A stretch of DNA of 64,000 nt from a virus (Duplodnaviria > Caudoviricetes), in the IMG/VR virus record IMGVR_UViG_3300017963_000189; one strand, given 5' to 3'. Below are positions 2,498 through 41,260 of the stretch, piece after piece. The translations under genes were made by a program, and so were the position numbers. The notes under the pieces were generated by a model that saw only the letters and a program-made list of their open reading frames with translations, ran no database searches and was not told the origin of the DNA. The stretch's first letter is position 1; each line of letters opens with the position of its first letter.

Positions 2498-3268
2498 TTA
2501 ATCTCCTATATTTCTACTTGTTATCCATTTTTCAATTATATATCTTTTATCCTTTACAAAATATGGTATTCTTGTATCGGCGACCCAGCGTGACCTTTCC
2601 ACCATTCCATCACCAACTACCACATCGTAACTTTCTTTATATACGACAAATCCCCACTTTTGTAAAGGTGTAAGATTATCCCACAAAATACCCTTTTTAT
2701 AACACATATCAACCATTTCTTGTTGATTCTTTCCATTACATTCACTGTGACTATATAATGAACGAGCAAGAGCTTGAATGGAATTTCTCTTGGCATCTTG
2801 TTGTCTCCAAATGAAAACATTTTCTATTTCGCCGACAGTTGGCACATTGAAAACTCGGGCATCAAATAATGCTGATGTCCATTGATCAAAATGACCCACT
2901 CCCTTTAGATTGAAATGTGCGGTGAACGCGGAAGCCATAATGGATGTGATCTTTTGTATCTTTCCACCAAAATACATTTGTGAATCAGGATTCGCCCATC
3001 CATTCAATAAAAATGTGACTTCATCAGATTGCCCGTAAGCCATAAGTATTTGTCCTACATCACGACATAAATCAATAGTCGCTTGTTGAAACAATAATGA
3101 CAAACGATAATCAAATGGTTTCTCGATGTTCATTCGTTTTACCCATGTGTGAAACGCCTTACCATCAAGGCGAACAAACGTAGGCATATTTTGATTTACA
3201 TATCCTAACTCCGGAGAATAAAATTCCTTCTCATACATTTTCATCCGGTCGCCTAATGAATCACTCAT
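2498..3268 (-). CDS. thg1: tRNA(His) guanylyltransferase Thg1-like protein (3'-5' polymerase)
   Basis: VRLDGKAFH, YGQSDEVTFL, FDARVF, WRQQDAKRNSI motifs; start taken at MSDSLG (GGAGG SD). Confidence 0.93.
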   Translation of the reverse strand: MSDSLGDRMKMYEKEFYSPELGYVNQNMPTFVRLDGKAFHTWVKRMNIEKPFDYRLSLLFQQATIDLCRDVGQILMAYGQSDEVTFLLNGWANPDSQMYFGGKIQKITSIMASAFTAHFNLKGVGHFDQWTSALFDARVFNVPTVGEIENVFIWRQQDAKRNSIQALARSLYSHSECNGKNQQEMVDMCYKKGILWDNLTPLQKWGFVVYKESYDVVVGDGMVERSRWVADTRIPYFVKDKRYIIEKWITSRNIGD

Positions 3269-3567
3269 AATTCCTCCGTCCATTGACAATGTTCATACGC
3301 ATCGTTTGAGCCTTCTTCATACTTTAGTTGCATAACTTCATCTATTTCATCTAAAAGTTCTTTGCTCAATTTTATACCAAATTCCACACAAGATTCTAAC
3401 TTAGCCATCAATACATTGTAACGATAATTTACTTCAGATAAAGTAACGTGTTGTATAAACTTTCCATCAATCCATAACTCCGCATCATAATATGGATATG
3501 AACCATCAATCTTTTTTACGTTACGATATTCTTTATCACGATACTTTTTTCCCATCTTTCTTTCCAT
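3265..3567 (-). CDS. Hypothetical protein
   Basis: Co-oriented ORF, overlaps neighbours. Confidence 0.6.
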   Translation of the reverse strand: MERKMGKKYRDKEYRNVKKIDGSYPYYDAELWIDGKFIQHVTLSEVNYRYNVLMAKLESCVEFGIKLSKELLDEIDEVMQLKYEEGSNDAYEHCQWTEEL

Positions 3568-8726: not shown

Positions 8727-10370
8727 TTAGAATTTATCCATAATAAAGTCACTCATTATAGATGGCGCGTTTGTGTCGAAACCAACAACGTCGAGTGAGC
8801 TTCTATCCTTTGGATCAGCAATAGTGAAACCATTCGATGCCATACCAACTACAACTAACTTGACATCGTGACCCACTTTATGACGATAACGATCCATTGC
8901 TTCGCTTGGTTGGATATTTCCTGCCCAAGTTTCATTATCGGTATATACAAAAATCGCGTCAAAATCCTTGTTCATACCAGCGGCCCACAATGCTGGTAAA
9001 GCACAATCAGTTCCACCAAAATCTAACCTGCTAACGTAATTATCCACATCATTCAAACTCATTCTATCGTGTAACTTCAATTCCGTTACATTAGTTAACG
9101 CTTGACCAGAACCATACCAACCACCACCGGTAAATCCAATAATACCCCAGTTCTTTTCAGCTTTCATCGTTACCATAGCCATTGCGGACGATGCGGAACG
9201 ACAACTGATAAATGGAGCGTTTTGAATACCACTACCCATAGAACCAGATACATCCAAAGCAATCAAGATTCTCTTACCCGTAGACTCAATGTTCTTGAAT
9301 GCTTTGTAAAATCCTGCGTCCAAAGCGGAAACGATTTGTGGTACAACGTTCCAAGTATTAGACCCACGAAAACCACGTCCTGCTTCATAGGTTTTCAAAG
9401 CCATTAATAATTGAATAGGATGTACACGTGCTTTCTTTAACGCTTCATCATTAGTGATCTTGTCAACCACTAAGTTGATTTCGTCAAAGTTACCACTTTC
9501 CAAGATACCAACTTTGGATAAGTTACCTAAATTACGAATTAACGCAGTCATAGGCATTGTTGGTAACAACGCTTCGTATACTTTCTTTCCTAAGAATTGT
9601 GTAGGAATAGCTTCCCGTGGCAAGTTATATTCCTTAATCAAGTTCACAATTTCCTTTTCATTTTCGGCTTTCTTTGCTAACTCAAAACCATAAATCATTG
9701 GAATTTTCCTATACTTCTCAATGTCGCCATTGATTCCTTGAGTAATCCAATGGAATACCTTGTTCATATCTTCATTGACGGCTTGTGCATGAGACTTACG
9801 TAAAATGTCACGGTGACTCCACCCGTCACGAGATTGATACTTGACTACTTGATACGCCAACTTGTTGATGTCCTTGTCGGTGTACCACTTGGCGAATGCC
9901 TTACGTAATCCACGACCCCAACCACGCATCGAGTTTACGAACTCTGTGAAATGGAATAAATGAGTACCAATACGTGCTACTTTACTCAAGTTGTCCAAAG
10001 CGTACTTCTTAGCTTCGTCAGTTCCATAGGAAGCAACCATCGCTAATACGAATAACGCTGGATCATTATTAGGTGCACGACCCTCTAAAGAAATCTCAAC
10101 TACACGATTTACAACTTCAATGCCATCTTCCTTGATTAACTTTTCAATGTTCTTAGCATTCTTCTTAGTTAACTTTTGCGCGGATGCGTAATAAGTTGGT
10201 TGATCGCTACCCAATACTAAGAAACGATTTAACTTATCCCACTTGTCCAACTTAAATGAGACGCCACCGCCATAATTCTTAGCCATATCTTTCTTACGAC
10301 CCTTGATTTTTTGGTTTTGTGGAGTTGCTACCTTAGTAGACTTGTTTAAAGTTTTGGTATAATTTTGCAT
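8727..10370 (-). CDS. rsr: Ro60/Rsr TROVE-domain RNA-binding protein with vWA domain
   Basis: FLVLGS..TYY, SRDGWSHRDIL, PMTALIRNL, IALDVSGSM, GGTDCALP, YTDNETWAG, FTIADP; start MQNYT at 10370 after AGGAGG. Confidence 0.95.
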   Translation of the reverse strand: MQNYTKTLNKSTKVATPQNQKIKGRKKDMAKNYGGGVSFKLDKWDKLNRFLVLGSDQPTYYASAQKLTKKNAKNIEKLIKEDGIEVVNRVVEISLEGRAPNNDPALFVLAMVASYGTDEAKKYALDNLSKVARIGTHLFHFTEFVNSMRGWGRGLRKAFAKWYTDKDINKLAYQVVKYQSRDGWSHRDILRKSHAQAVNEDMNKVFHWITQGINGDIEKYRKIPMIYGFELAKKAENEKEIVNLIKEYNLPREAIPTQFLGKKVYEALLPTMPMTALIRNLGNLSKVGILESGNFDEINLVVDKITNDEALKKARVHPIQLLMALKTYEAGRGFRGSNTWNVVPQIVSALDAGFYKAFKNIESTGKRILIALDVSGSMGSGIQNAPFISCRSASSAMAMVTMKAEKNWGIIGFTGGGWYGSGQALTNVTELKLHDRMSLNDVDNYVSRLDFGGTDCALPALWAAGMNKDFDAIFVYTDNETWAGNIQPSEAMDRYRHKVGHDVKLVVVGMASNGFTIADPKDRSSLDVVGFDTNAPSIMSDFIMDKF

Positions 10371-10410
10371 GATTCGACCCTCCTGTTTAAAGGTAAATGT
10401 TATATAAACT

Positions 10411-10439
10411 AAAAAACCCGACAAGATATTTGTCGGGTT
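10411..10439 (-). terminator. Intrinsic terminator between Y-like RNA and rsr start
   Basis: AACCCGACAA-N5-TTGTCGGGTT followed by T-run. Confidence 0.75.
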
Positions 10440-10459
10440 ACTATTGTAAACAAAATATC

Positions 10460-10523
10460 TTGGATAAAAAGTTGTTGATGTTATTTTTACGTGTGATCGC
10501 GATAATCATCAACTACGACCCAA
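10460..10523 (-). ncRNA. Y RNA-like RNA A (64 nt)
   Basis: TTGGGT-CGT-AGTTGATGA-TTATC ... CATCAAC ... TTTT-ATCCAA; adjacent to rsr. Confidence 0.7.
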
Positions 10524-10594
10524 ATTATGTCTGAGATTGTAGGTTTTACAATCTCGTTACTGTTTGTACACATGGTACATCAGCTAAAATATAA

Positions 10595-10916
10595 AAAATT
10601 GGCGGGATTCGCATCTACCCGCAAGCGTTCATTCAGACTTGAATTATTCGAGCATGTCGGTTAACAACCGTCGTTATTAACCTTATGACAGGAAGAACCT
10701 ATCTATTTATCTTCCAACGTCCACTAGCAGTAGCTCTATTGCCAATTATAATGGGGATTTTAGCAGACGAACCATTGATATGTTTTTTTCAACCCCAAGA
10801 GTTGATCCCACTCCCATATCGACAGTCTCTTATTCTCACTGAACTCGCAACCGACTCCCAGAACTTTTCAGTCTGGGCTATCGTACCTTACTCACCTGCA
10901 TGAGTTATTCAGTCAC
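10595..10916 (-). ncRNA. Unidentified ~320-nt structured RNA
   Basis: Non-coding; multiple hairpins (ACTCA/TGAGT, CCCAGAC/GTTCTGGG, GGAAGA/TCTTCC); 5' GACTGAAT can pair with 3' ATTCAAGTC; preceded by boxA-like site. Confidence 0.55.
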
Positions 10917-10920
10917 AAAA

Positions 10921-10932
10921 TTTTCAAAGATC
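10921..10932 (-). promoter_or_regulatory. boxA-like antitermination element (GATCTTTGAAAA)
   Basis: Resembles rrn boxA; precedes ncRNA. Confidence 0.45.
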
Positions 10933-10941
10933 AAAATAAAA

Positions 10942-11030
10942 TGATGGATAAAGGTGGCTAACGAGATTGACGCGCGTCACGTCCTGCGTTTTTTTCGATT
11001 AAAAGATAACGTTAAACCGACGACCCATCA
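10942..11030 (-). ncRNA. Y RNA-like RNA B (89 nt)
   Basis: TGATGGGT-CGT-CGGTTTAACG-TTATC ... CGTTAGCC-ACCTTT-ATCCATCA. Confidence 0.7.
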
Positions 11031-11058
11031 AGTCCTGTATCAATCAGGACTTGTTTAG

Positions 11059-11132
<74 letters not shown>

Positions 11133-11155
11133 ATACAATATGTTATATATACTTA

Positions 11156-11183
11156 TATACTATTCAACTAAATAAAAGTTCCA
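11156..11183 (-). promoter_or_regulatory. Putative alternative-sigma promoter TGGAAC-N16-AGTATA
   Basis: Directly upstream of tRNA-fMet / Y-like RNA B. Confidence 0.5.
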
Positions 11184-11200
11184 TTTTTCTCAAAAAAAAA

Positions 11201-11440
11201 TTTAGGATAAGGAACGACCAGAGAGAGTTGATTTTTCCGTGAAACTATCACGTCTTTTTAACGTTGTTGTTAAAGACTCTCAACGGGGCTTCTTAAACTT
11301 GCTCCCACACAAGAAACTCTAAGACCGCGAAAACTTTCTTCGGTTAAGATTTTACGACGCGGCTAGCAGATCGAGTTTACAATCTACCTTTCATCCTTTT
11401 AGAATTATCTGTAAGGTAACTCTGCATCAACGACCCTAAA
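11201..11440 (-). ncRNA. Y RNA-like RNA C (240 nt, large internal domain)
   Basis: TTTAGGGT-CGT-TGATGCAGAG-TTACC ... CTCTGGTCG-TTCCTT-ATCCTAAA. Confidence 0.65.
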
Positions 11441-11452
11441 AGTTGAGAAAAA

Positions 11453-11464
11453 TTTTCAAAGAAC
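11453..11464 (-). promoter_or_regulatory. boxA-like element (GTTCTTTGAAAA)
   Basis: 12 nt upstream of Y-like RNA C. Confidence 0.45.
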
Positions 11465-11512
11465 TATTTGTACTACCATATATAAGTATATACAAATTTT
11501 CGAAACGTATCT

Positions 11513-11543
11513 ATTATACTACTTTTTGTGAAAAAAAGTTCCA
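11513..11543 (-). promoter_or_regulatory. Putative promoter TGGAAC-N17-AGTATAAT
   Basis: Heads the Y RNA/rsr unit. Confidence 0.5.
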
Positions 11544-11569
11544 TTTTTTGAAACTTTTTTTATTTTTTA

Positions 11570-11923
11570 TCATCCGTCTCGCCATGCTTCAGAATAAGTA
11601 GAAAATTCAAGATCATCACCGAACTTTTCCTTGAGTTTCTTTTCTACTCTCGCCTTAAATTCGGCTCCAGTTTCATCGTCTTTAACTTGATCCCACGACA
11701 CACCAATATAACAACCATAATCTCCGTCATAAGGCCATAGACATTCCATATCAAGTTCTTTTCCTAATTCATATCCAATTTCCCATACATCAGTATCATC
11801 GTCGTCGTTTTCAACTTCCATATTTAAAGCCTCACGAAATTCATCTTCCGATTCAAAACAAATTCCATAAATCAAGAATGAAGATGTGGAACTATTACTT
11901 ACAAACCCATTTCTTACTTTCAT
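11570..11923 (-). CDS. GFVSNSS-motif protein 8
   Basis: Begins MKVRNGFVSNSSTSSF; acidic body. Confidence 0.8.
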   Translation of the reverse strand: MKVRNGFVSNSSTSSFLIYGICFESEDEFREALNMEVENDDDDTDVWEIGYELGKELDMECLWPYDGDYGCYIGVSWDQVKDDETGAEFKARVEKKLKEKFGDDLEFSTYSEAWRDG

Positions 11924-15134: not shown

Positions 15135-16169
15135 CTATATTTCATAATGTACACACGATTGTTTACATTCTCTACATTTAATTACTTTATTCCTAAACTC
15201 AATAACTCGTTCACTATTCCACAAATCATTGAGAAAATTGTCCACTTCATTTAACTTAATTCCCTCTTTCCAATCAGATTCACCTTCCATAAAACTACAA
15301 GGGAAAAACTCACCTTTTACATTGAAGTAACTTGAAAATAAACTTGATTCACATGGTTCAATGTATTGTTCATATTGAGAATCATTACCAACTGCTTTCA
15401 AAAACTTGAACGCACCACAACTATCAAATCCAATGGGAACATTATTTGAAAGGGCGAAATTGACAAGTTCACTAAATTTTTCTTGCGAAAGTTGAGTGTA
15501 ACGAGATTCTGCTCGACCCTTTTTCTTGAGTGACAAAAATACAATCGCGTTCATCTTTGATAAACGTTCGTCGTTATGTCTCTCATATATTAAACTACGC
15601 GCCTTGTCAAAAGTTTCATTTGAAATCATAAAATGTATGTTTACCTGATCCATACCACGATCGGTCAGTTTCTTGATCGTGTTGAATGTCATATCCTTGT
15701 CATAATAAGATACGGCTACCGCTCCACAAGCAGCTGCTAAATGATCTGCTAATTCGTCAGTAATACCAGCTCCGTTTACGGTGACATTTGGAATGACTTT
15801 GTTATCTCGACAATACTTGAAGATTTTCCACATATCAGGATTTGAATCTATATCACCTATACCAAAAGCGATTTGTGTGATTGTGGGCGGGAGTTTGGCG
15901 AAAAGTTCCTTGAATGTCTCTAATGTCATATATTCGCCGTTTGGATTGTTTTTCTTGTAACAAAAGTTACATGGAACACCAACACCTTTACACGATGTCG
16001 CTATCTCAATGTCAGCAATCTCAGGACCAAATGGTGAAAATTGTGGATCATCCTCTTGTGTCTTTCCCCAACGCGCAAAAAACCCACTTTTCCTATCAAA
16101 AATAAAGTTGTAATCTCGGGAGTGCAGATAAGTCTTGTCACCCTTATGGGCGATAATCGCTTTGTTCAT
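15135..16169 (-). CDS. Radical SAM enzyme with SPASM/twitch-like C-terminus
   Basis: CKGVGVPCNFC (CX6CX2C variant), IAFGIGD, VTVNG, PCESSLFSSYFNVKGEFFPCSF, CRECKQSC. Confidence 0.85.
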   Translation of the reverse strand: MNKAIIAHKGDKTYLHSRDYNFIFDRKSGFFARWGKTQEDDPQFSPFGPEIADIEIATSCKGVGVPCNFCYKKNNPNGEYMTLETFKELFAKLPPTITQIAFGIGDIDSNPDMWKIFKYCRDNKVIPNVTVNGAGITDELADHLAAACGAVAVSYYDKDMTFNTIKKLTDRGMDQVNIHFMISNETFDKARSLIYERHNDERLSKMNAIVFLSLKKKGRAESRYTQLSQEKFSELVNFALSNNVPIGFDSCGAFKFLKAVGNDSQYEQYIEPCESSLFSSYFNVKGEFFPCSFMEGESDWKEGIKLNEVDNFLNDLWNSERVIEFRNKVIKCRECKQSCVHYEI

Positions 16170-18149: not shown

Positions 18150-19352
18150 TTATGTCACACTTAGTATGACATCATTGTTCGTGTCGCCAAAAACGGTGGC
18201 GAAAATCGCTTCCTTCTTGTCAAGGATATAATAATATACATCAACCTGTTCGCTCGTCTTTCTCAATGTTTGATTCTTGTAATGTACATCTTTACCCTCT
18301 TTTATGATCTTATCATAATGTTTCAATCTTTCCAAGTTCTCATTGTTTGTAACTCTAAAATGTTCCTGAGCTCTTGACTTCATTGGTTTATTGATTATAT
18401 CTTGTCGTTTTAAACCGGTCAACTTCTCAAAACTTTCATTCGCATCAAGTATAATGTAATCGACCACTCTATTCTTTTTATCATAAATAAGTTTTTTGTA
18501 GGCTATCGCATTGAAACTACGATGAAAAAGTAACTTGTATTTTCTCTCGTTTTCTTTGGCTTGTTCAGTGAGAAATTTTGTTTTTGTTATGTCTTGAATC
18601 GTTTGTATAAAATATAATGGTTCATCGTTTGATGTTTTTTGTAAAGTGGTTGTAACCAACGCCCAGAAGTAGAAACCATTATATTTCTTGAATCGTTTCT
18701 CTACTTGAACAAAATCTTGACCACCATCTAATAACCTATTACAAATATAATCAACCGATTCCAGATCAGATTTATATGTTATATCTTTTGGAGTAAGATC
18801 AAGTATGTCGCCACGAGTGTAACCCAATAGGTTACAAAATGTGTCGTTTACATCCATGTATTTCATGTCCATGTCTACTATGGCTTGAGCGACACCGGGA
18901 TTGTTGAATAATCCATCGAATTTTTCTTGTTCGATTTTCTCAGTGTTCGCTAACATCCTCTCGTTCGTTACATCACGACCAACTAAAATAAGGTATTCAT
19001 CGTCGTATAAACCATGAGCTGGATCATCTTGTGATGGAGTGTTAGATATACGATGTATATAATACTTACATGATACTAACTTAGTATCACTATTTTTTGT
19101 TTGTATAAAGAATTCCTGTTCACCATTGAATGTTTCATTGAACATTTTTTGTAATACTTTTTCGGTGTTGTCCTTATCATCTTCTATTACTAATGATGAA
19201 AAAGGTTTTTCCTGCATTTCATGATGATTATATCCCAACGCCTTAAAAGTATTGTTATTTACTTCTTGTACTCGTTTGAATTCATCAATGATGAAAATCA
19301 TTGCATCAACTTCATTTAATAAGTTGTATAAAAAATCTTTATCATTTAACAT
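18150..19352 (-). CDS. Multi-PAS domain protein without output domain
   Basis: Three PAS/PAC repeats (VNNNTFKALGY, VNDTFCNLLGYT, ANESFEKLTGL). Confidence 0.85.
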   Translation of the reverse strand: MLNDKDFLYNLLNEVDAMIFIIDEFKRVQEVNNNTFKALGYNHHEMQEKPFSSLVIEDDKDNTEKVLQKMFNETFNGEQEFFIQTKNSDTKLVSCKYYIHRISNTPSQDDPAHGLYDDEYLILVGRDVTNERMLANTEKIEQEKFDGLFNNPGVAQAIVDMDMKYMDVNDTFCNLLGYTRGDILDLTPKDITYKSDLESVDYICNRLLDGGQDFVQVEKRFKKYNGFYFWALVTTTLQKTSNDEPLYFIQTIQDITKTKFLTEQAKENERKYKLLFHRSFNAIAYKKLIYDKKNRVVDYIILDANESFEKLTGLKRQDIINKPMKSRAQEHFRVTNNENLERLKHYDKIIKEGKDVHYKNQTLRKTSEQVDVYYYILDKKEAIFATVFGDTNNDVILSVT

Positions 19353-19636
19353 ATAAATCTCTCAAGTAAGTTAACTATCAAATAAGAACCTGAACAAGAT
19401 GTAAGTGTTTCTAATCGTTGTTCTTTACTTATTGTATTGTCACTAATAACCTTTAACATATCTCGTAAATATGACTTGTCCAAATCAGATGGCGCCACAA
19501 CTTCTATGTCTAAATTAGACAAAATAGATAAATCACGAATTTCACTTACTAACTCTTTTCGTGTTTCATCTTTCGCCTTGTCAATTATTTCTTTCCACTC
19601 TCCCATAATTTTACTCCATGTATAAATAGTGATCAA
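19346..19636 (-). CDS. Hypothetical protein
   Basis: Co-oriented ORF. Confidence 0.6.
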   Translation of the reverse strand: MITIYTWSKIMGEWKEIIDKAKDETRKELVSEIRDLSILSNLDIEVVAPSDLDKSYLRDMLKVISDNTISKEQRLETLTSCSGSYLIVNLLERFIC

Positions 19637-20241
19637 CCATAAAATTTTGATTCACCATATAGTAATTTTACCTCTTTCATGATAAAAGCATACATACGAG
19701 CAACATTATACGCATCGTCCATTCCACGATGGGGCGAGCCTTCAAACTCTAAACCAAGTACCTGAAGCGCGTTGTCCACGTTTCGTTGTACGTTTTGATT
19801 CGTCAAAAGTGAAAACCAATACTTGAAATTACTATGAGTATGTTTGAACGGATATTGTAATCCCTTTCTCTCACATTCTCTTTCTACTTGTTGTCTATCA
19901 AAATCTCCCCAGGACATCCATTCATATTTCGTTGTCTTGAACTCAGTCATCATCCTCGCCAGGGCATAGTCAAGGGCAAGACCATCCTTGATTATCATTT
20001 GTTGAGTGATACCTGTGAGTTTAGTGCAGTAATCTGTTATACCACTTAGACCCATCTCTGTAGGAATTATGAGATAACTTTCTTTCTTTTCGATCTCCAA
20101 TGATCTCGTATCAAGTTGTACTATTCCTATCTCAATCATTTCCATTACGTCACGTTGATTTCGTCCATCAGGAAGTATACCATTTTCCCAACAAGTGCTT
20201 TCCAAATCTACGAAATTTATTTTTTGTACCTTTTTCGCCAT
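19633..20241 (-). CDS. DEDDh 3'-5' exonuclease (ERI1/KapD-like)
   Basis: VDLEST, EIIEIG-like MIEIG, LTGIT, WGDFD, HRGMDDA. Confidence 0.9.
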   Translation of the reverse strand: MAKKVQKINFVDLESTCWENGILPDGRNQRDVMEMIEIGIVQLDTRSLEIEKKESYLIIPTEMGLSGITDYCTKLTGITQQMIIKDGLALDYALARMMTEFKTTKYEWMSWGDFDRQQVERECERKGLQYPFKHTHSNFKYWFSLLTNQNVQRNVDNALQVLGLEFEGSPHRGMDDAYNVARMYAFIMKEVKLLYGESKFYG

Positions 20242-32082: not shown

Positions 32083-32093
32083 TGTCAAAGAAC
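32083..32093 (-). promoter_or_regulatory. boxA-like element (GTTCTTTGACA) at head of tRNA array
   Basis: Between promoter and first tRNA. Confidence 0.5.
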
Positions 32094-38153: not shown

Positions 38154-38401
38154 TTCTCTACCTCTTTTTTATATGTCGCCTGACACACTCGACAACGATA
38201 TACAATAGTATAATCAAGATACTGCCCATCGTCGTCCTCTTTAATCTCCAAACACTTCTCCGTATATAAGTGTTCCTCTTTACAATTATGCTCGCCAACA
38301 TATCGGGGACGCGGAACTACATCCACGTGCCCGATTGTTAACCCCAAATCCCTTAATTTCTTGTACTCTTTACTCAACATAAATAACCTTATTGAACTCA
38401 C
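38150..38401 (-). CDS. Hypothetical protein
   Basis: Co-oriented ORF, CRVC motif. Confidence 0.55.
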   Translation of the reverse strand: MSSIRLFMLSKEYKKLRDLGLTIGHVDVVPRPRYVGEHNCKEEHLYTEKCLEIKEDDDGQYLDYTIVYRCRVCQATYKKEVEK

Positions 38402-39431
38402 TCTTTAAAGATTGTTCACCTTTCTTGAATAATTTATATTGTTTACGGATAATTGATTCCGGTACAACTGATCTATCAACTCCATTTTCTATATCCTTGT
38501 TTACTCGTTCTAATGAAGTTTCTACATCAGATTCAAATACAACGGCTATCTTTTGCGCACCATTGAAATCAGCCATAAACTCAACTCTCAACCATTTATT
38601 TACATTGGTAGCATCCAAATACACTTTACCATATCTACGTAACGCGACTTTCATTCTTATTTTCGCGGTTGGCCAAACTTCAGCATTCATAGATTGATCG
38701 GAAACATCACCGGTCAACTCTCTACGAATATCGTCTGGCGAAACAATGTATTTTGGATCAACATTTTTTAAATAACGAGATTTACCTGAACCAGATATTC
38801 CAACCATTACATATACCTTTTTACTGGAATGTCTTTGTTTGAAATATACCCACTTTTCTTTGATAACGTTTTTCAACCTATCAGACCAATCGGATTCTTT
38901 CAAATATAATTGTTTGGATATAACCTTGTCAGCGGTAATAAAATCATCTAAATCGGGATCATCTTGTAACTTCTTGTGACCCGGATTCAAATCCATATGT
39001 TTATCAATCATACGATAAGTTAAATCATAATGTTTGATTCTATTTTTTATAGATTCTAAATACTTTATAGATTCTTTTGGATGTCCAAAAGCATATATAC
39101 GATCATTACCTACATTAGTCTTAGTTCCCTTACCATAATCATGTAAAAAAGCTGCTTCTAACAAATCAGGACGTTTTAATTTCCATACAGCCATTACTAC
39201 ATAATAAGTGTGATAAAAAGCATCAAACTCAGGGTGATGGTTCAAACCTTGTGGAACGCCCTCTAAAGCGTTTACAACCTTAGCGGTAATATCATATTCA
39301 CGTAACGCTCTTTTCCATTCCTCTATATAAGTAGCATTAGTAACAATTCTACGTTGTGGATATTCACGAACAATCGCCCGTGAACATAACCAAGTTTCAA
39401 CCAATATGTTTTTTAAACTTTGTTGTGCCAT
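38370..39431 (-). CDS. HD-domain phosphohydrolase fused to P-loop polynucleotide kinase (AAA_33)
   Basis: HH...HT...LHDYGK...GH; GISGSGKS, SPDDIRREL, LDATN. Confidence 0.85.
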   Translation of the reverse strand: MAQQSLKNILVETWLCSRAIVREYPQRRIVTNATYIEEWKRALREYDITAKVVNALEGVPQGLNHHPEFDAFYHTYYVVMAVWKLKRPDLLEAAFLHDYGKGTKTNVGNDRIYAFGHPKESIKYLESIKNRIKHYDLTYRMIDKHMDLNPGHKKLQDDPDLDDFITADKVISKQLYLKESDWSDRLKNVIKEKWVYFKQRHSSKKVYVMVGISGSGKSRYLKNVDPKYIVSPDDIRRELTGDVSDQSMNAEVWPTAKIRMKVALRRYGKVYLDATNVNKWLRVEFMADFNGAQKIAVVFESDVETSLERVNKDIENGVDRSVVPESIIRKQYKLFKKGEQSLKSEFNKVIYVE

Positions 39432-39471: not shown

Positions 39472-40080
39472 CTAAATGTCAAGTGTTTTTTTCAATATTT
39501 TTTCCTTTTCTAATACCTTATGTAACGCTTGTAAAATAAACAACTCATACTCTTTTCCTGCTCTCGCATACATATGAGTAATAACATTCTTTGGATCAAA
39601 ACCCTTTCGATATGGGCGATCCTGCGTCATAGCATCATAAACATCAACTATCGCTAATATCTGGGCGAGCCCGTTGAACTCCGTTCCCTTTAAACCATTT
39701 GGATAACCTGTACCATTCAACTTCTCATGATGTTGCTCAACTATCTCAGCTTCAGCATCCATACCAAGTGACCGTAAAATCGTAGCACTGTCTGATGGAT
39801 GTTGTTTGATACTCTCATATTCTTCGCCAGTTAATTTACCGGGTTTAAATAAAATACCCTTTGGTATCTTGATTTTTCCCACATCATGATAATACGCTGC
39901 ACGTGTTACCAGGTTCGCGGTTTTCAAGTCTAAACCCAACTCTTGGGCGACCATCTTAACAATCCTACCAACCCTTAAAGAATGTTTTTGGGTATAATCA
40001 GAGTCCTCTACGGCTTTCAGAAGACTCATTGTGATTAATACCCTTTGATAGTCTATTTCAAATTTAGTGTCCTTTGCCAT
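39472..40080 (-). CDS. HD-GYP domain phosphodiesterase
   Basis: HSLRV, HDVGKI, HHEKLNGTGYPNGL, DVYDAMT..RPYR. Confidence 0.92.
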   Translation of the reverse strand: MAKDTKFEIDYQRVLITMSLLKAVEDSDYTQKHSLRVGRIVKMVAQELGLDLKTANLVTRAAYYHDVGKIKIPKGILFKPGKLTGEEYESIKQHPSDSATILRSLGMDAEAEIVEQHHEKLNGTGYPNGLKGTEFNGLAQILAIVDVYDAMTQDRPYRKGFDPKNVITHMYARAGKEYELFILQALHKVLEKEKILKKTLDI

Positions 40081-41260
40081 TTATTTTCTCTACCAATAAA
40101 TTTTTTATTCGTTTTAATCCCTTTTGTTCGTACAATCCATGTATTACATCTATCGCCTTTAATTCAGGTTTATCTACCATAGTGAAAATAAATCCAACTC
40201 GATCACGTTTGATTTTATCTTGTATCTCTAACGCTAACTCTTTACGAGACATTTCAGGCGCTCTTTTTCTATAATACTCACCCTCTTTAGATAAATATTC
40301 AATCAATTCAAAATACCTTTTTTTCAACAACTTATATTCTTCTTTTACGGAATCAGGTAACTTGTCCAAATATACTTCAAATTCTTCTTCCTCGTTGTCC
40401 AATAAAACACCTACCAAGTTGTTAGTCACACCCTCGCCAGTAGCTACATGGTGTAAATGAACATACTTTGGCGACTTAACTTTTACTCGACCAACTACTA
40501 AATCATCTTTGAACTGAACAACTATAAATCCCTCAAATCCATTTCCCTTTTCATTCTCTTTATCAGCAATTTCAGATAATTCGGAAACATCCTTAACATC
40601 TTTCAAATCAAACAATCTTGGAAAACGTATAGAATATCCCTTGAACATCTTTTCGTATTTCTTCTTTATGGATTTATGGAATATATTAAAGTCACGTAAT
40701 TCACCATCGTTTTCTTTTAAACCAATGAAAACTAACTCTTTTACGCCTTCATAATCAACTACTATTTGATTTGATGGATGTACCAACTCAAACATATAAG
40801 TCAAATTTGGCGAAAATTCCGCAGTTAACTTTTCAAAATCTTCTTTAGAAACTACATCAAAGAAAATCTTGGAAAAAGAAATTCCATCCATATTAGACGC
40901 ATCATCAGCATCAATAGTTCCATTAGTTGCTACTCTCCATTCACCATCATAAAAATATACTTTTATAATAGAACCATCTACCTTTTCAACTACATAAGAA
41001 TCATCTAATATCAAATTGTAAGCATATATTTCACCGTAGTTGAAAAACTTATCAAATGGATGCGCAACTATATTCCAAGTTCCCTTTTCTAATATGATAC
41101 CACGAGATTCTTTTACAATCTTGTTAGAGAAATCGGAATTAAACTGATTATACTTGAATATAACTAAGTTATCCTTAGCATTAATATGCAAGTTGAACGG
41201 GTCTTTACGTAAATCATCTAAAGACCGTATTTTCAATATTTTTTGTAAGTTCAATTTCAC
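40064..41260 (-). CDS. T4 Rnl1-family RNA ligase
   Basis: ESRGIIL, PFDKFFNYGE, EKVDGSII, FELV, EGFIVV, VKVKS. Confidence 0.88.
   Translation of the reverse strand: MKLNLQKILKIRSLDDLRKDPFNLHINAKDNLVIFKYNQFNSDFSNKIVKESRGIILEKGTWNIVAHPFDKFFNYGEIYAYNLILDDSYVVEKVDGSIIKVYFYDGEWRVATNGTIDADDASNMDGISFSKIFFDVVSKEDFEKLTAEFSPNLTYMFELVHPSNQIVVDYEGVKELVFIGLKENDGELRDFNIFHKSIKKKYEKMFKGYSIRFPRLFDLKDVKDVSELSEIADKENEKGNGFEGFIVVQFKDDLVVGRVKVKSPKYVHLHHVATGEGVTNNLVGVLLDNEEEEFEVYLDKLPDSVKEEYKLLKKRYFELIEYLSKEGEYYRKRAPEMSRKELALEIQDKIKRDRVGFIFTMVDKPELKAIDVIHGLYEQKGLKRIKNLLVEKINGKGH

Follow-up and report, generated by a model that had tools for sequence, protein, structure and literature searches.

The RNA family manA (RF01745), known from marine bacteria and cyanophages, was included among riboswitch candidates by Weinberg et al. 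2010 (PMC2864571). According to a cryo-electron microscopy (cryo-EM) preprint, manA RNAs build assemblies of RNA only, namely octamers, decamers and a 60-mer cage made from pentamers, in which a conserved core carries variable peripheral helices and the contacts are kissing loops and one GNRA loop-receptor interface (Ren et al. 2026, 10.64898/2026.07.01.735769). Two other ornate phage RNAs, ROOL (RF03087; Weinberg et al. 2017; Kretsch et al. 2025, PMC12286853) and GOLLD (RF01998), form RNA-only cages (PMC12286853). The protein Ro60, for its part, binds structured or misfolded RNAs by way of its central hole, and Y RNAs tether Ro60 to PNPase (Chen et al. 2014, PMC4201824). The RNA considered here is encoded on the minus strand of a DNA stretch of 64,000 nucleotides (nt), hereafter the window, from a large uncultured phage (IMG/VR record IMGVR_UViG_3300017963_000189), where it belongs to an array of RNA genes in the gene-free stretch 11570-10374, upstream of the Ro60 homologue rsr. 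It is a real, conserved, stand-alone structured non-coding RNA, and our reading, with a probability of about 0.68, is that this molecule of ~325-337 nt is an enlarged relative of manA with two cores, which probably assembles with itself and is possibly circularised.

The extent of the RNA is given by two kinds of data.

10593..10929, minus strand: whole RNA unit, ~325-337 nt; the nhmmer profile of the family spans 10924-10593, and RNA sequencing (RNA-seq) contigs of relatives span 10593-10929

The 5' end lies near C10929, and the 3' end is the last U of a U-run. A first-pass annotation, made from the letters of the window, had placed here, at 10595-10916, a structured non-coding RNA inside a unit of Y RNA and rsr, GC-richer than its flanks and with many hairpins. 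There is indeed an RNA at this position, but its unit is slightly longer, and the rest of the description is borne out by the interruption of all three minus-strand frames of 10593-10929 by stop codons, by the fold and by conservation. The GC content of 10593-10929 is 41.5%; the spacers on either side have 31.5% and 30.4%, and the whole window has 34.9%. The minimum free energy is -93.1 kcal/mol, with z = -2.5 in relation to shuffled sequences; many of the hairpins belong to covarying helices, as detailed below. The sole internal open reading frame (ORF), which has 72 amino acids on the plus strand, had no relatives, and a search for RNA-derived contigs that contain it came back empty.

When the Ro60 protein was used as query, one IMG/VR locus and many metagenomic relatives were found, and the contigs of twelve Ro60 relatives were examined for a homologue of the RNA. 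Seven distinct Ro60 loci have such a homologue, at a distance of ~200-550 nt upstream of rsr. One more full variant (L045/L049) and a partial one (L048) came from a metagenome scan for the invariant positions, in which the other finds were duplicates. Metagenomic phage contigs carry the RNA in at least nine sequence variants, each with a Y-like RNA just downstream and with rsr after it wherever the contig extends that far, and in all twenty DNA loci with the RNA it is collinear and single-copy. The alignment of nine sequences has a mean column identity of 72%, with AACU.U.GGGGUUG, GC..AAA.CCCC, GCUACU and GACG as long invariant runs. Scans of IMG/VR with family-specific motifs gave the contig L001 and, apart from this, chance matches in GC-rich coding DNA (L028, L030, L031), and a DNA search of 50,697 phage records gave no close relative, tRNA-Met being the sole match. 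Among the other rsr relatives, L037/L038 and L043 have no copy of the RNA within the 3 kb examined upstream, and L039 has protein genes directly upstream of rsr and no copy; the contig L044 ends 19 nt before rsr and is uninformative in this respect.

The consensus fold was calculated with RNAalifold on eight, then nine aligned variants, and 78-81 pairs were predicted. With eight sequences, 48 pairs are retained through changes on both sides. With nine, there are 81 pairs, 94% of the cells are paired and 51 pairs display double changes, while only 9-23 double-change pairs remain when the partners are slid and at most 41 appear in 500 within-column permutations. The comparison with metagenomic relatives that the first-pass annotation had put forward as a check is hereby made, and conservation is its outcome. 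The outer part of the fold consists of five helices: the closing helix P1, the internal-loop hairpin P2, the GNRA hairpin P3, the long arm P4, which encloses P5-P8, and the hairpin P9, whose loop has 11 nt.

10916..10920, minus strand: P1 5' strand UUUUG (CCUCG in most relatives), pairing with 10601-10597 with compensatory changes
10885..10915, minus strand: outer manA-type module, consisting of UG, ACU, internal loop GAAUA, hairpin P2b, AA and GGU, with invariant letters and covarying stems
10852..10883, minus strand: P3 hairpin with a covarying stem and the GNRA cap GAAA at 10869-10866
10832..10848, minus strand: P4 arm, 5' strand (GCG, UUCAG, UG, GAAU), pairing with 10644-10625 with compensatory changes
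10625..10644, minus strand: P4 arm, 3' strand (AUUC, CUGAA, CGC), with compensatory changes
10602..10622, minus strand: P9, hairpin GCGGG-UAGAUGCGAAU-CCCGC (10622-10602) of 5 base pairs (bp) and an 11-nt loop, with a covarying stem that abuts the P1 3' strand
10597..10601, minus strand: P1 3' strand CAAUU (CGAGG in relatives) with compensatory changes, followed by the U-run 10596-10593

In the outer junction, as covariation shows, the closing helix, which we call helix X, is P1, the helix that joins the ends of the RNA; it can be extended by AAAA at 10924-10921. The outer module 10885..10915 aligns to positions 22-60 of the manA model. Seven variants have GAAA as the P3 tetraloop, while L040 has GCAA and L045 has GUAA. 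Two proposals of the first-pass annotation are modified by this fold. The annotation let 5' GACTGAAT pair with 3' ATTCAAGTC, and this complementarity is present, but covariation backs P1 (10920-10916/10601-10597) instead, and ATTC pairs with an internal GAAT at 10835-10832 rather than as a terminal pairing; the resemblance arises because the GAAUAA module occurs twice. It had also noted a 3' end with a T-run, and a hairpin at 10622-10602 followed by CAAUUUUUU is found there, but this hairpin is of the conserved manA loop type, lies directly against P1 and is more than a terminator stem. Alternative long-range helices (columns 287-290/344-347 and 29-35/322-328) display some covariation, but clash with better-supported stems and were rejected.

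Inside P4, the arrangement of the outer junction recurs.

10896..10899, minus strand: loop L2 (GCAG), strand of a 4-bp pseudoknot, pairing with 10730-10727 in 9/9 variants
10825..10831, minus strand: return strand of the inner module, AA then GAGAC (GGU in most relatives), pairing with the inner A' strand
10789..10805, minus strand: P5 hairpin with the invariant AACU.U.GGGGUUG
10719..10768, minus strand: P6 domain, with a stem of 10768-10761 and 10726-10719 (8 bp, 5 covarying) around the invariant AAA.CCCC and GCUACU
10727..10730, minus strand: pseudoknot partner (CUGC), beside the invariant GCUACU in the P6 domain
10691..10716, minus strand: P7 hairpin; most relatives have here another loop hairpin, of the G-UA...AAU-C type
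10655..10690, minus strand: P8, where helix P8a (UGUC/GACA) is capped by hairpin P8b (7/7 pairs covarying) with the invariant loop GACG
10645..10658, minus strand: A' strand of the inner module, consisting of the P8a 3' strand GACA, UG, CUC and the GAAUA loop, a second copy of GUG-ACU-GAAUAA

The second GUG-ACU-GAAUA-AUYC, on the 3' side of P4, pairs with GRAU-AA-GGU on its 5' side in the same way as in P2. The changes in the inner helix are compensatory: CUC/GAG in the window and L045, CUAC/GUAG in L032 and ACU/GGU in most others, while in L040 a G-C replaces the A-U of the others, and GAAU/AUUC alternates with GGAU/AUCC. The order of elements in the inner junction is that of the outer one, i.e., helix X (here P8a), UG, internal-loop helix, P5, arm P6, loop hairpin P7 and helix X again. 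The inner copy is permuted, in that its helix X is capped and its internal-loop helix leads out to the outer junction. P7 is even taken as the terminal hairpin by the manA model in L033 and L041. For P5, there is the alternative that GGGGUU pairs with AAUCCC at 10759-10754, and since the segment is invariant in all variants, covariation cannot choose between the two pairings. Outside the stems, the L2 pseudoknot is the sole extra helix that joins two otherwise unpaired segments, and two of its four columns covary (GCAG/CUGC, GUAG/CUAC, AUAG/CUAU, ACAG/CUGU, GCAG/CUGU). As covariation shows, the architecture is that of two nested five-way junctions, each with helix X, UG, the ACU/GAAUA//AA/GGU helix, a hairpin, a long arm and a G-UA...A.U-C loop hairpin abutting X, and a 4-bp pseudoknot links the loop of the outer hairpin to the inner domain.

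A second enlarged manA-type RNA was encountered on a 180-kb IMG/VR phage contig (L018:2684-2998, plus strand), with 299 nt between its P1 strands. It carries the same nested second module (GGAAAUUAAGGU with GAUGACUGAAAAUUU). The domain inserted in it is unrelated, and the 4.6 kb examined around it contain neither a tRNA nor rsr.

The kinship with manA was evaluated by the Rfam model and by individual features. At Rfam gathering thresholds nothing but tRNAs was found in the whole window, and the RNA is not a group I or II intron, a transfer-messenger RNA or RNase P, of which the first-pass annotation had likewise found no sign. The Rfam-wide check that the annotation had proposed was made with a permissive local search, and manA, with a gathering threshold of 55.2 bits, is the only family that aligns to the RNA. 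It does so in 5/9 variants at 12-20 bits: 20.1 bits in the window (E = 0.004, local search), 20.4 in L032, 18.1 in L033, 17.8 in L041, 12.0 in L001 and no alignment in the other four. The alignment in the window spans the full model with an insertion of 227 nt, and its score comes from three collinear elements, namely P1 + UG + ACUGAAUAA, then UAAGGU, and then UG.GGGUA...AAUCCC.CC followed by the P1 3' strand. The letters that the RNA and manA have in common are GUGACUGAAUAA, the hairpin, UAAGGU and UG.GGGUA.A...AAUCCC.CC. The annotation had found no known match by eye; this stands in so far as no Rfam family reaches its threshold, but the manA junction core and two modules of the ROOL consensus are shared. 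That the RNA belongs with the ornate phage RNAs which occur beside tRNA genes, a group that the annotation had brought up, is supported.

The pattern of the 5' element was used to scan IMG/VR, and it gave 26 loci; of the 13 that were scanned, 5 are Rfam manA matches. A simple rule emerges: a loop hairpin is followed after 0 nt by the P1 3' strand, which is complementary to the five letters before UG-ACUGAAUAA. Independent manA-type RNAs follow it at 142-173 nt, and do so with five different P1 sequences; 7/9 variants of the present RNA follow it at 317-321 nt, and L018 at 299 nt. P1, UG and the hairpin aCUGAAUAA...UAAgGu are present with letters that are invariant or nearly so in the nine variants, and with covariation in P1, P2a and P2b. 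The last hairpin has 5 bp, an 11-nt UA...A.U loop and no spacer to P1, also in all relatives, and the order of P1, internal-loop hairpin, GNRA arm, second arm and loop hairpin is that of the Rfam structure line. On the other side, the score of 20 bits is below the Rfam threshold, and in place of a single core of 140-190 nt there are ~320 nt between the P1 strands, with a permuted second core inside P4. Since the layout is that of the manA core, the RNA is read as an enlarged and internally duplicated relative: judged from its sequence, it is a manA-class variant with two cores, has no entry in Rfam 15 and is not a member by the Rfam definition.

The RNA thus resembles manA in the helix order of the five-way junction, in UG, in the internal-loop hairpin, in the GNRA-capped arm and in the abutting hairpin with its 11-nt loop, and both occur in phages, often beside tRNA genes. 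It differs in being about twice as large (~335 against 140-190 nt), in its second, nested and permuted core with the pseudoknot between L2 and the inner domain, in the absence of the 5' P0 hairpin, in lying next to Y RNAs and rsr instead of in a 5' untranslated region, and in the evidence for joined ends. Canonical-size manA-type RNAs were also seen between tRNA genes, on the plus strand at L024:8305-8480 (between tRNA-Ala and tRNA-Asn) and L017:8428-8570 (after tRNA-Arg), and a free-standing RNA fits this placement better than does the cis-regulatory label in Rfam.

Suppose instead that the RNA is a new class, unrelated to manA by descent, which reuses a widespread block of loop hairpin, helix and GUG-ACU-GAAUA loop and may work in another way than manA and ROOL do. 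This is what the low manA scores of 12-20 bits would lead one to expect, as would the ~210 nt (P5-P8) that have no counterpart in manA, and the nhmmer profile of the family, which meets only the P2 module in manA-type loci. ROOL points the same way. One of the 26 pattern loci lies in the 3' domain of a ROOL RNA (L004:3239-3835, minus strand, holds ROOL), and the ROOL consensus there has a GGUAAuCAAUCC loop hairpin, a helix, GUGgcuGAAUA and a helix strand, so that the block, which occurs twice in the RNA here, is common to several families. In the 5' region of ROOL, the return strand of the block (helix-AA-GGU) was not identified, and the block is therefore treated as a shared module and not as a sign of membership; a ROOL model gave no match on 10300-11600 with E up to 10. 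ROOL is, like the present RNA, a large ornate phage RNA near tRNA genes, but it has ~580 nt and another overall fold. GOLLD is likewise an ornate phage RNA, often just downstream of tRNA-Met, but has >800 nt and no sequence or model match to the RNA here. What a new class leaves unexplained is that the order of the five helices, the 0-nt joint, the UG linker and the GNRA-capped arm all match manA, and that intermediate sizes exist, e.g., L018 at 299 nt with the same nested arrangement. An origin separate from manA is for these reasons regarded as unlikely, and the RNA as an enlarged manA relative is retained. In the manA and ROOL cryo-EM reports, no mention was found of the resemblance between the blocks of the two families.

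The array in which the RNA stands runs, from 5' to 3' on the minus strand, through a promoter-like site, a boxA-like box at 11464, a 240-nt Y-like RNA, tRNA-Met, a small Y-like RNA, a second boxA-like box at 10932-10924, the RNA itself, a hairpin, another Y-like RNA, a terminator and rsr.

11440-11201, minus strand: Y-like RNA, 240 nt, starting with GGGUCG and ending with UUAUCC
11058..11132, minus strand: tRNA-Met, upstream of the RNA in the array
about 11027-10945, minus strand: small Y-like RNA, starting with GGGUCG and ending with UUAUCC
10924..10932, minus strand: boxA-like box GAUCUUUGA, which contains the 5' end mapped for the RNA
about 10520-10455, minus strand: Y-like RNA between the RNA and rsr, starting with GGGUCG and ending with UUAUCC
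10439-10415, minus strand: strong terminator ahead of rsr
8727..10373, minus strand: rsr, the Ro60 homologue (Pfam TROVE 2.9e-39, vWA_Ro60 2.6e-56)

The rsr protein is encoded on a contig of up to 309 kb, and the window has 42 tRNA genes, every one on the minus strand. None of the Rfam Y RNA families matched the three Y-like RNAs of the window. A GGGUCG start follows 3' of the homologue of the RNA in all relatives (L001, L032, L033, L035, L040, L041, L042 and L045). The array, from the boxA-like box through Y-like RNAs, tRNA-Met and the RNA to Y RNA and rsr, is probably the context in which the RNA is transcribed from the minus strand. The boxA-like site that the first-pass annotation had seen upstream, GATCTTTGA at 10932-10924, is confirmed by its relatives: G(A/T/G)TCTTT(G/C/T)A stands 9-45 nt upstream of P1 in 10/10 variants with readable upstream sequence, and is kept whether tRNA-Met, a Y-like RNA or a coding gene stands further upstream. 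The same box precedes a Y-like RNA (11464) and a tRNA-like gene (32093), in the latter case as GTTCTTTGA at 32093-32085 (minus strand), behind a TTGACA-17-TATATT promoter and just before the tRNA gene 32070-31998, and near-perfect boxA sequences precede some manA RNAs (L008, L011). The site at 32093 suggests that boxA-type leaders serve the RNA-gene arrays of this phage. Across the window the pattern is not enriched, with 9 found and 8.7 expected, so its significance rests on position and not on number. The box is read as an antitermination-type leader signal, though it could equally be a conserved part of the mature RNA.

Directly upstream of the RNA, on the plus strand of L035 (2304-2421) and of L040 (1252-1388), there are matches to the tRNA model of 118 and 137 nt, which are tRNA-shaped genes with long insertions that were not called by ARAGORN. 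Near the array of the window, a radical SAM/SPASM enzyme is encoded as well as a protein with multiple PAS domains (15135-16169 and 18150-19352, minus strand), and among the ORFs of the window there are also domains of the histidine-kinase ATPase, HisKA and response-regulator receiver types.

The neighbourhood invites the idea that the RNA is a client or partner of the phage Ro60/Y RNA system, i.e., an RNA bound or chaperoned by Ro60 or a decoy for host exonucleases, and this is compatible with an enlarged manA relative. The shape of the RNA would then serve the binding of protein and not an assembly of RNA only. The synteny with Y-like RNAs and rsr is strict in every variant, and Ro60 is known to bind structured or misfolded RNAs. 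The RNA also shares its surroundings with the Y RNA/YrlA type (Chen et al. 2014, PMC4201824), since Y-like RNAs flank it upstream of rsr. However, its ends form P1 (of the CCUCG/CGAGG type) and not the Ro-binding terminal helix GGGUCG...UUAUCC of the neighbouring Y-like RNAs, it has no tRNA-like domain, it is three times larger than such RNAs, and enlarged manA-type RNAs also occur with no rsr nearby, as in the 4.6 kb examined around L018. We therefore regard a client role as rather improbable.

Part of the gene-free 1.2-kb stretch was found in 13 public runs, 9 of which are RNA libraries. Four RNA runs from four studies were compared with the window, and their contigs are from relatives that are 90-95% identical, not from the phage of the window itself. 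The contigs cover 10593-10929 at depths of 4-80, and this cover stops at the predicted ends and includes neither the adjacent Y RNA nor the start of rsr. Elsewhere, there is RNA cover of the tRNA-Met region, where the contigs continue into unrelated sequence, and of one short piece, 11310-11370. The differences in the X8 variant are compensatory, 10678 changing with 10663 (P8b) and 10881 with 10854 (P3). In an X6 contig, a joint from 10635 to 10781 omits 145 nt (P6-P8); its short side has 24 letters, and it could be a deletion variant or a chimera.

These ends matter for the view that the RNA is a cis-acting leader, riboswitch or attenuator for the downstream rsr. Such a leader would be expected upstream of rsr on the same strand, where the RNA is found in all variants, at a distance of ~220 nt; the Rfam label of manA is cis-regulatory, and the terminal helix with its U-run could end transcription. 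But the contigs from the RNA libraries end at the RNA's own ends and none extends toward rsr, and with regard to the RNA itself, it is parted from rsr by an entire Y RNA and by a distinct, strong terminator (10439-10415), the related manA-type RNAs in L017 and L024 stand between tRNA genes with no downstream ORF to regulate, and neither the size nor the double junction is like those of known riboswitches. Control of rsr in cis must accordingly be considered very unlikely, and a free-standing manA relative remains the preferred account.

The RNA contigs also bear on the form of the molecule. Contig 12 of X8 (340 nt) is circularly permuted and runs from 10778-10929 directly into 10593-10782 with no letters between, and a contig of X11 has 336 nt, of which 116 unaligned letters correspond to the 75 + 40 nt needed for one full turn. 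Joined molecules are therefore likely, and a predominantly circular form is possible. If closed into a circle, the RNA of the window would have an extended P1 (AAAA/UUUU) with a CUUUG loop as its cap. Circularisation may follow processing, plausibly by an Rnl1-type ligase of the phage, which has three candidate end-processing genes next to each other.

40064-41260, minus strand: Rnl1-like ligase (Pfam RNA_lig_T4_1 1.6e-24; NCBIfam T4 RnlA family 1.4e-22, below the curated cut-off)
39472-40080, minus strand: HD phosphohydrolase (Pfam HD_5 3.9e-30)
38370-39431, minus strand: protein with a Pnkp-like kinase domain (Pfam AAA_33 1.8e-15; NCBIfam bacter_Pnkp 1.5e-10, below the curated cut-off)

Such a scheme would suit an ATP-dependent ligase whose substrates are a 5'-phosphate end left by cleavage and a 3'-OH end left by termination. 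RtcB had no match among the 34 ORFs of the window that were scanned, nor on the L001 contig (37% complete); a search of L001 for the Rnl1 family is uninformative, as control genomes gave no match either. The window also encodes a homologue of Thg1-like tRNA-His guanylyltransferase and an RNase T-like exonuclease (2498-3289 and 19633-20241, minus strand). That the RNA is instead a ribozyme which excises itself and ligates its own ends with no protein ligase is hardly credible, since the joined 3'-5' junction in an RNA contig, the juxtaposition of the ends by P1 and the many invariant unpaired nucleotides are set against the lack of any match to an Rfam self-cleaving ribozyme with E up to 10, a 3' end at the end of the U-run, as for termination and not cleavage, and a ligase encoded by the phage itself.

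By analogy with manA, the RNA would most likely act as a self-assembling RNA particle or scaffold during infection, with the conserved GNRA loop and the invariant loops as candidate contact points. Its fixed place next to the Y RNAs and Ro60 may point to a role in RNA quality control or in protection from exonucleases. A number of points weigh against an enlarged, self-assembling and possibly circular manA relative. The manA score is far below threshold, and its E-value for a search of the whole window would be near 1. The likeness amounts to ~40 shared core positions and the topology, so that convergence on a common RNA building block is possible, and since ROOL carries both sequence modules, these are not diagnostic of manA ancestry. 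Self-assembly is argued purely by analogy, from a preprint, and the connection of the RNA to Ro60 is drawn from position, not from direct evidence. The boxA-like box over the 5' end may be a mere transcription signal. RNA libraries can contain DNA, and circularity is deduced from one permuted contig in one run and a coincidence of length in another; with a single such contig, template switching by reverse transcriptase, or a tandem copy in an unsampled relative, is possible.

Pushed to its limit, the same line of thought gives a tentative and, on balance, unlikely proposal: that giant phages with Ro60 make a covalently circular RNA of ~337 nt, closed by a phage-encoded Rnl1-type ligase, which has two manA-type junctions and builds an RNA-only particle, and whose circularity guards against the 3' exonucleases recruited by the Ro60/Y RNA machinery. 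If this were true, it would be a DNA-encoded, enzymatically circularised, cage-forming RNA of a bacterial virus, and manA, ROOL and the enlarged forms would make up one superfamily with a common junction module.

For 16 years manA has been filed as an orphan cis-regulatory element or riboswitch candidate, and enlarged, free-standing and abundant relatives among tRNA and Y RNA genes support the view that the RNA itself is the gene product, a view of the class that agrees with the recent cage structures. A junction module common to manA, ROOL and the RNA described here hints that several ornate phage RNAs are put together from the same parts, and this could guide structure prediction and searches. 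The Ro60/Y RNA neighbourhood and the joined ends provide the first testable leads on the role of such an RNA in infection, in RNA quality control, in protection from exonucleases or in encapsulation.

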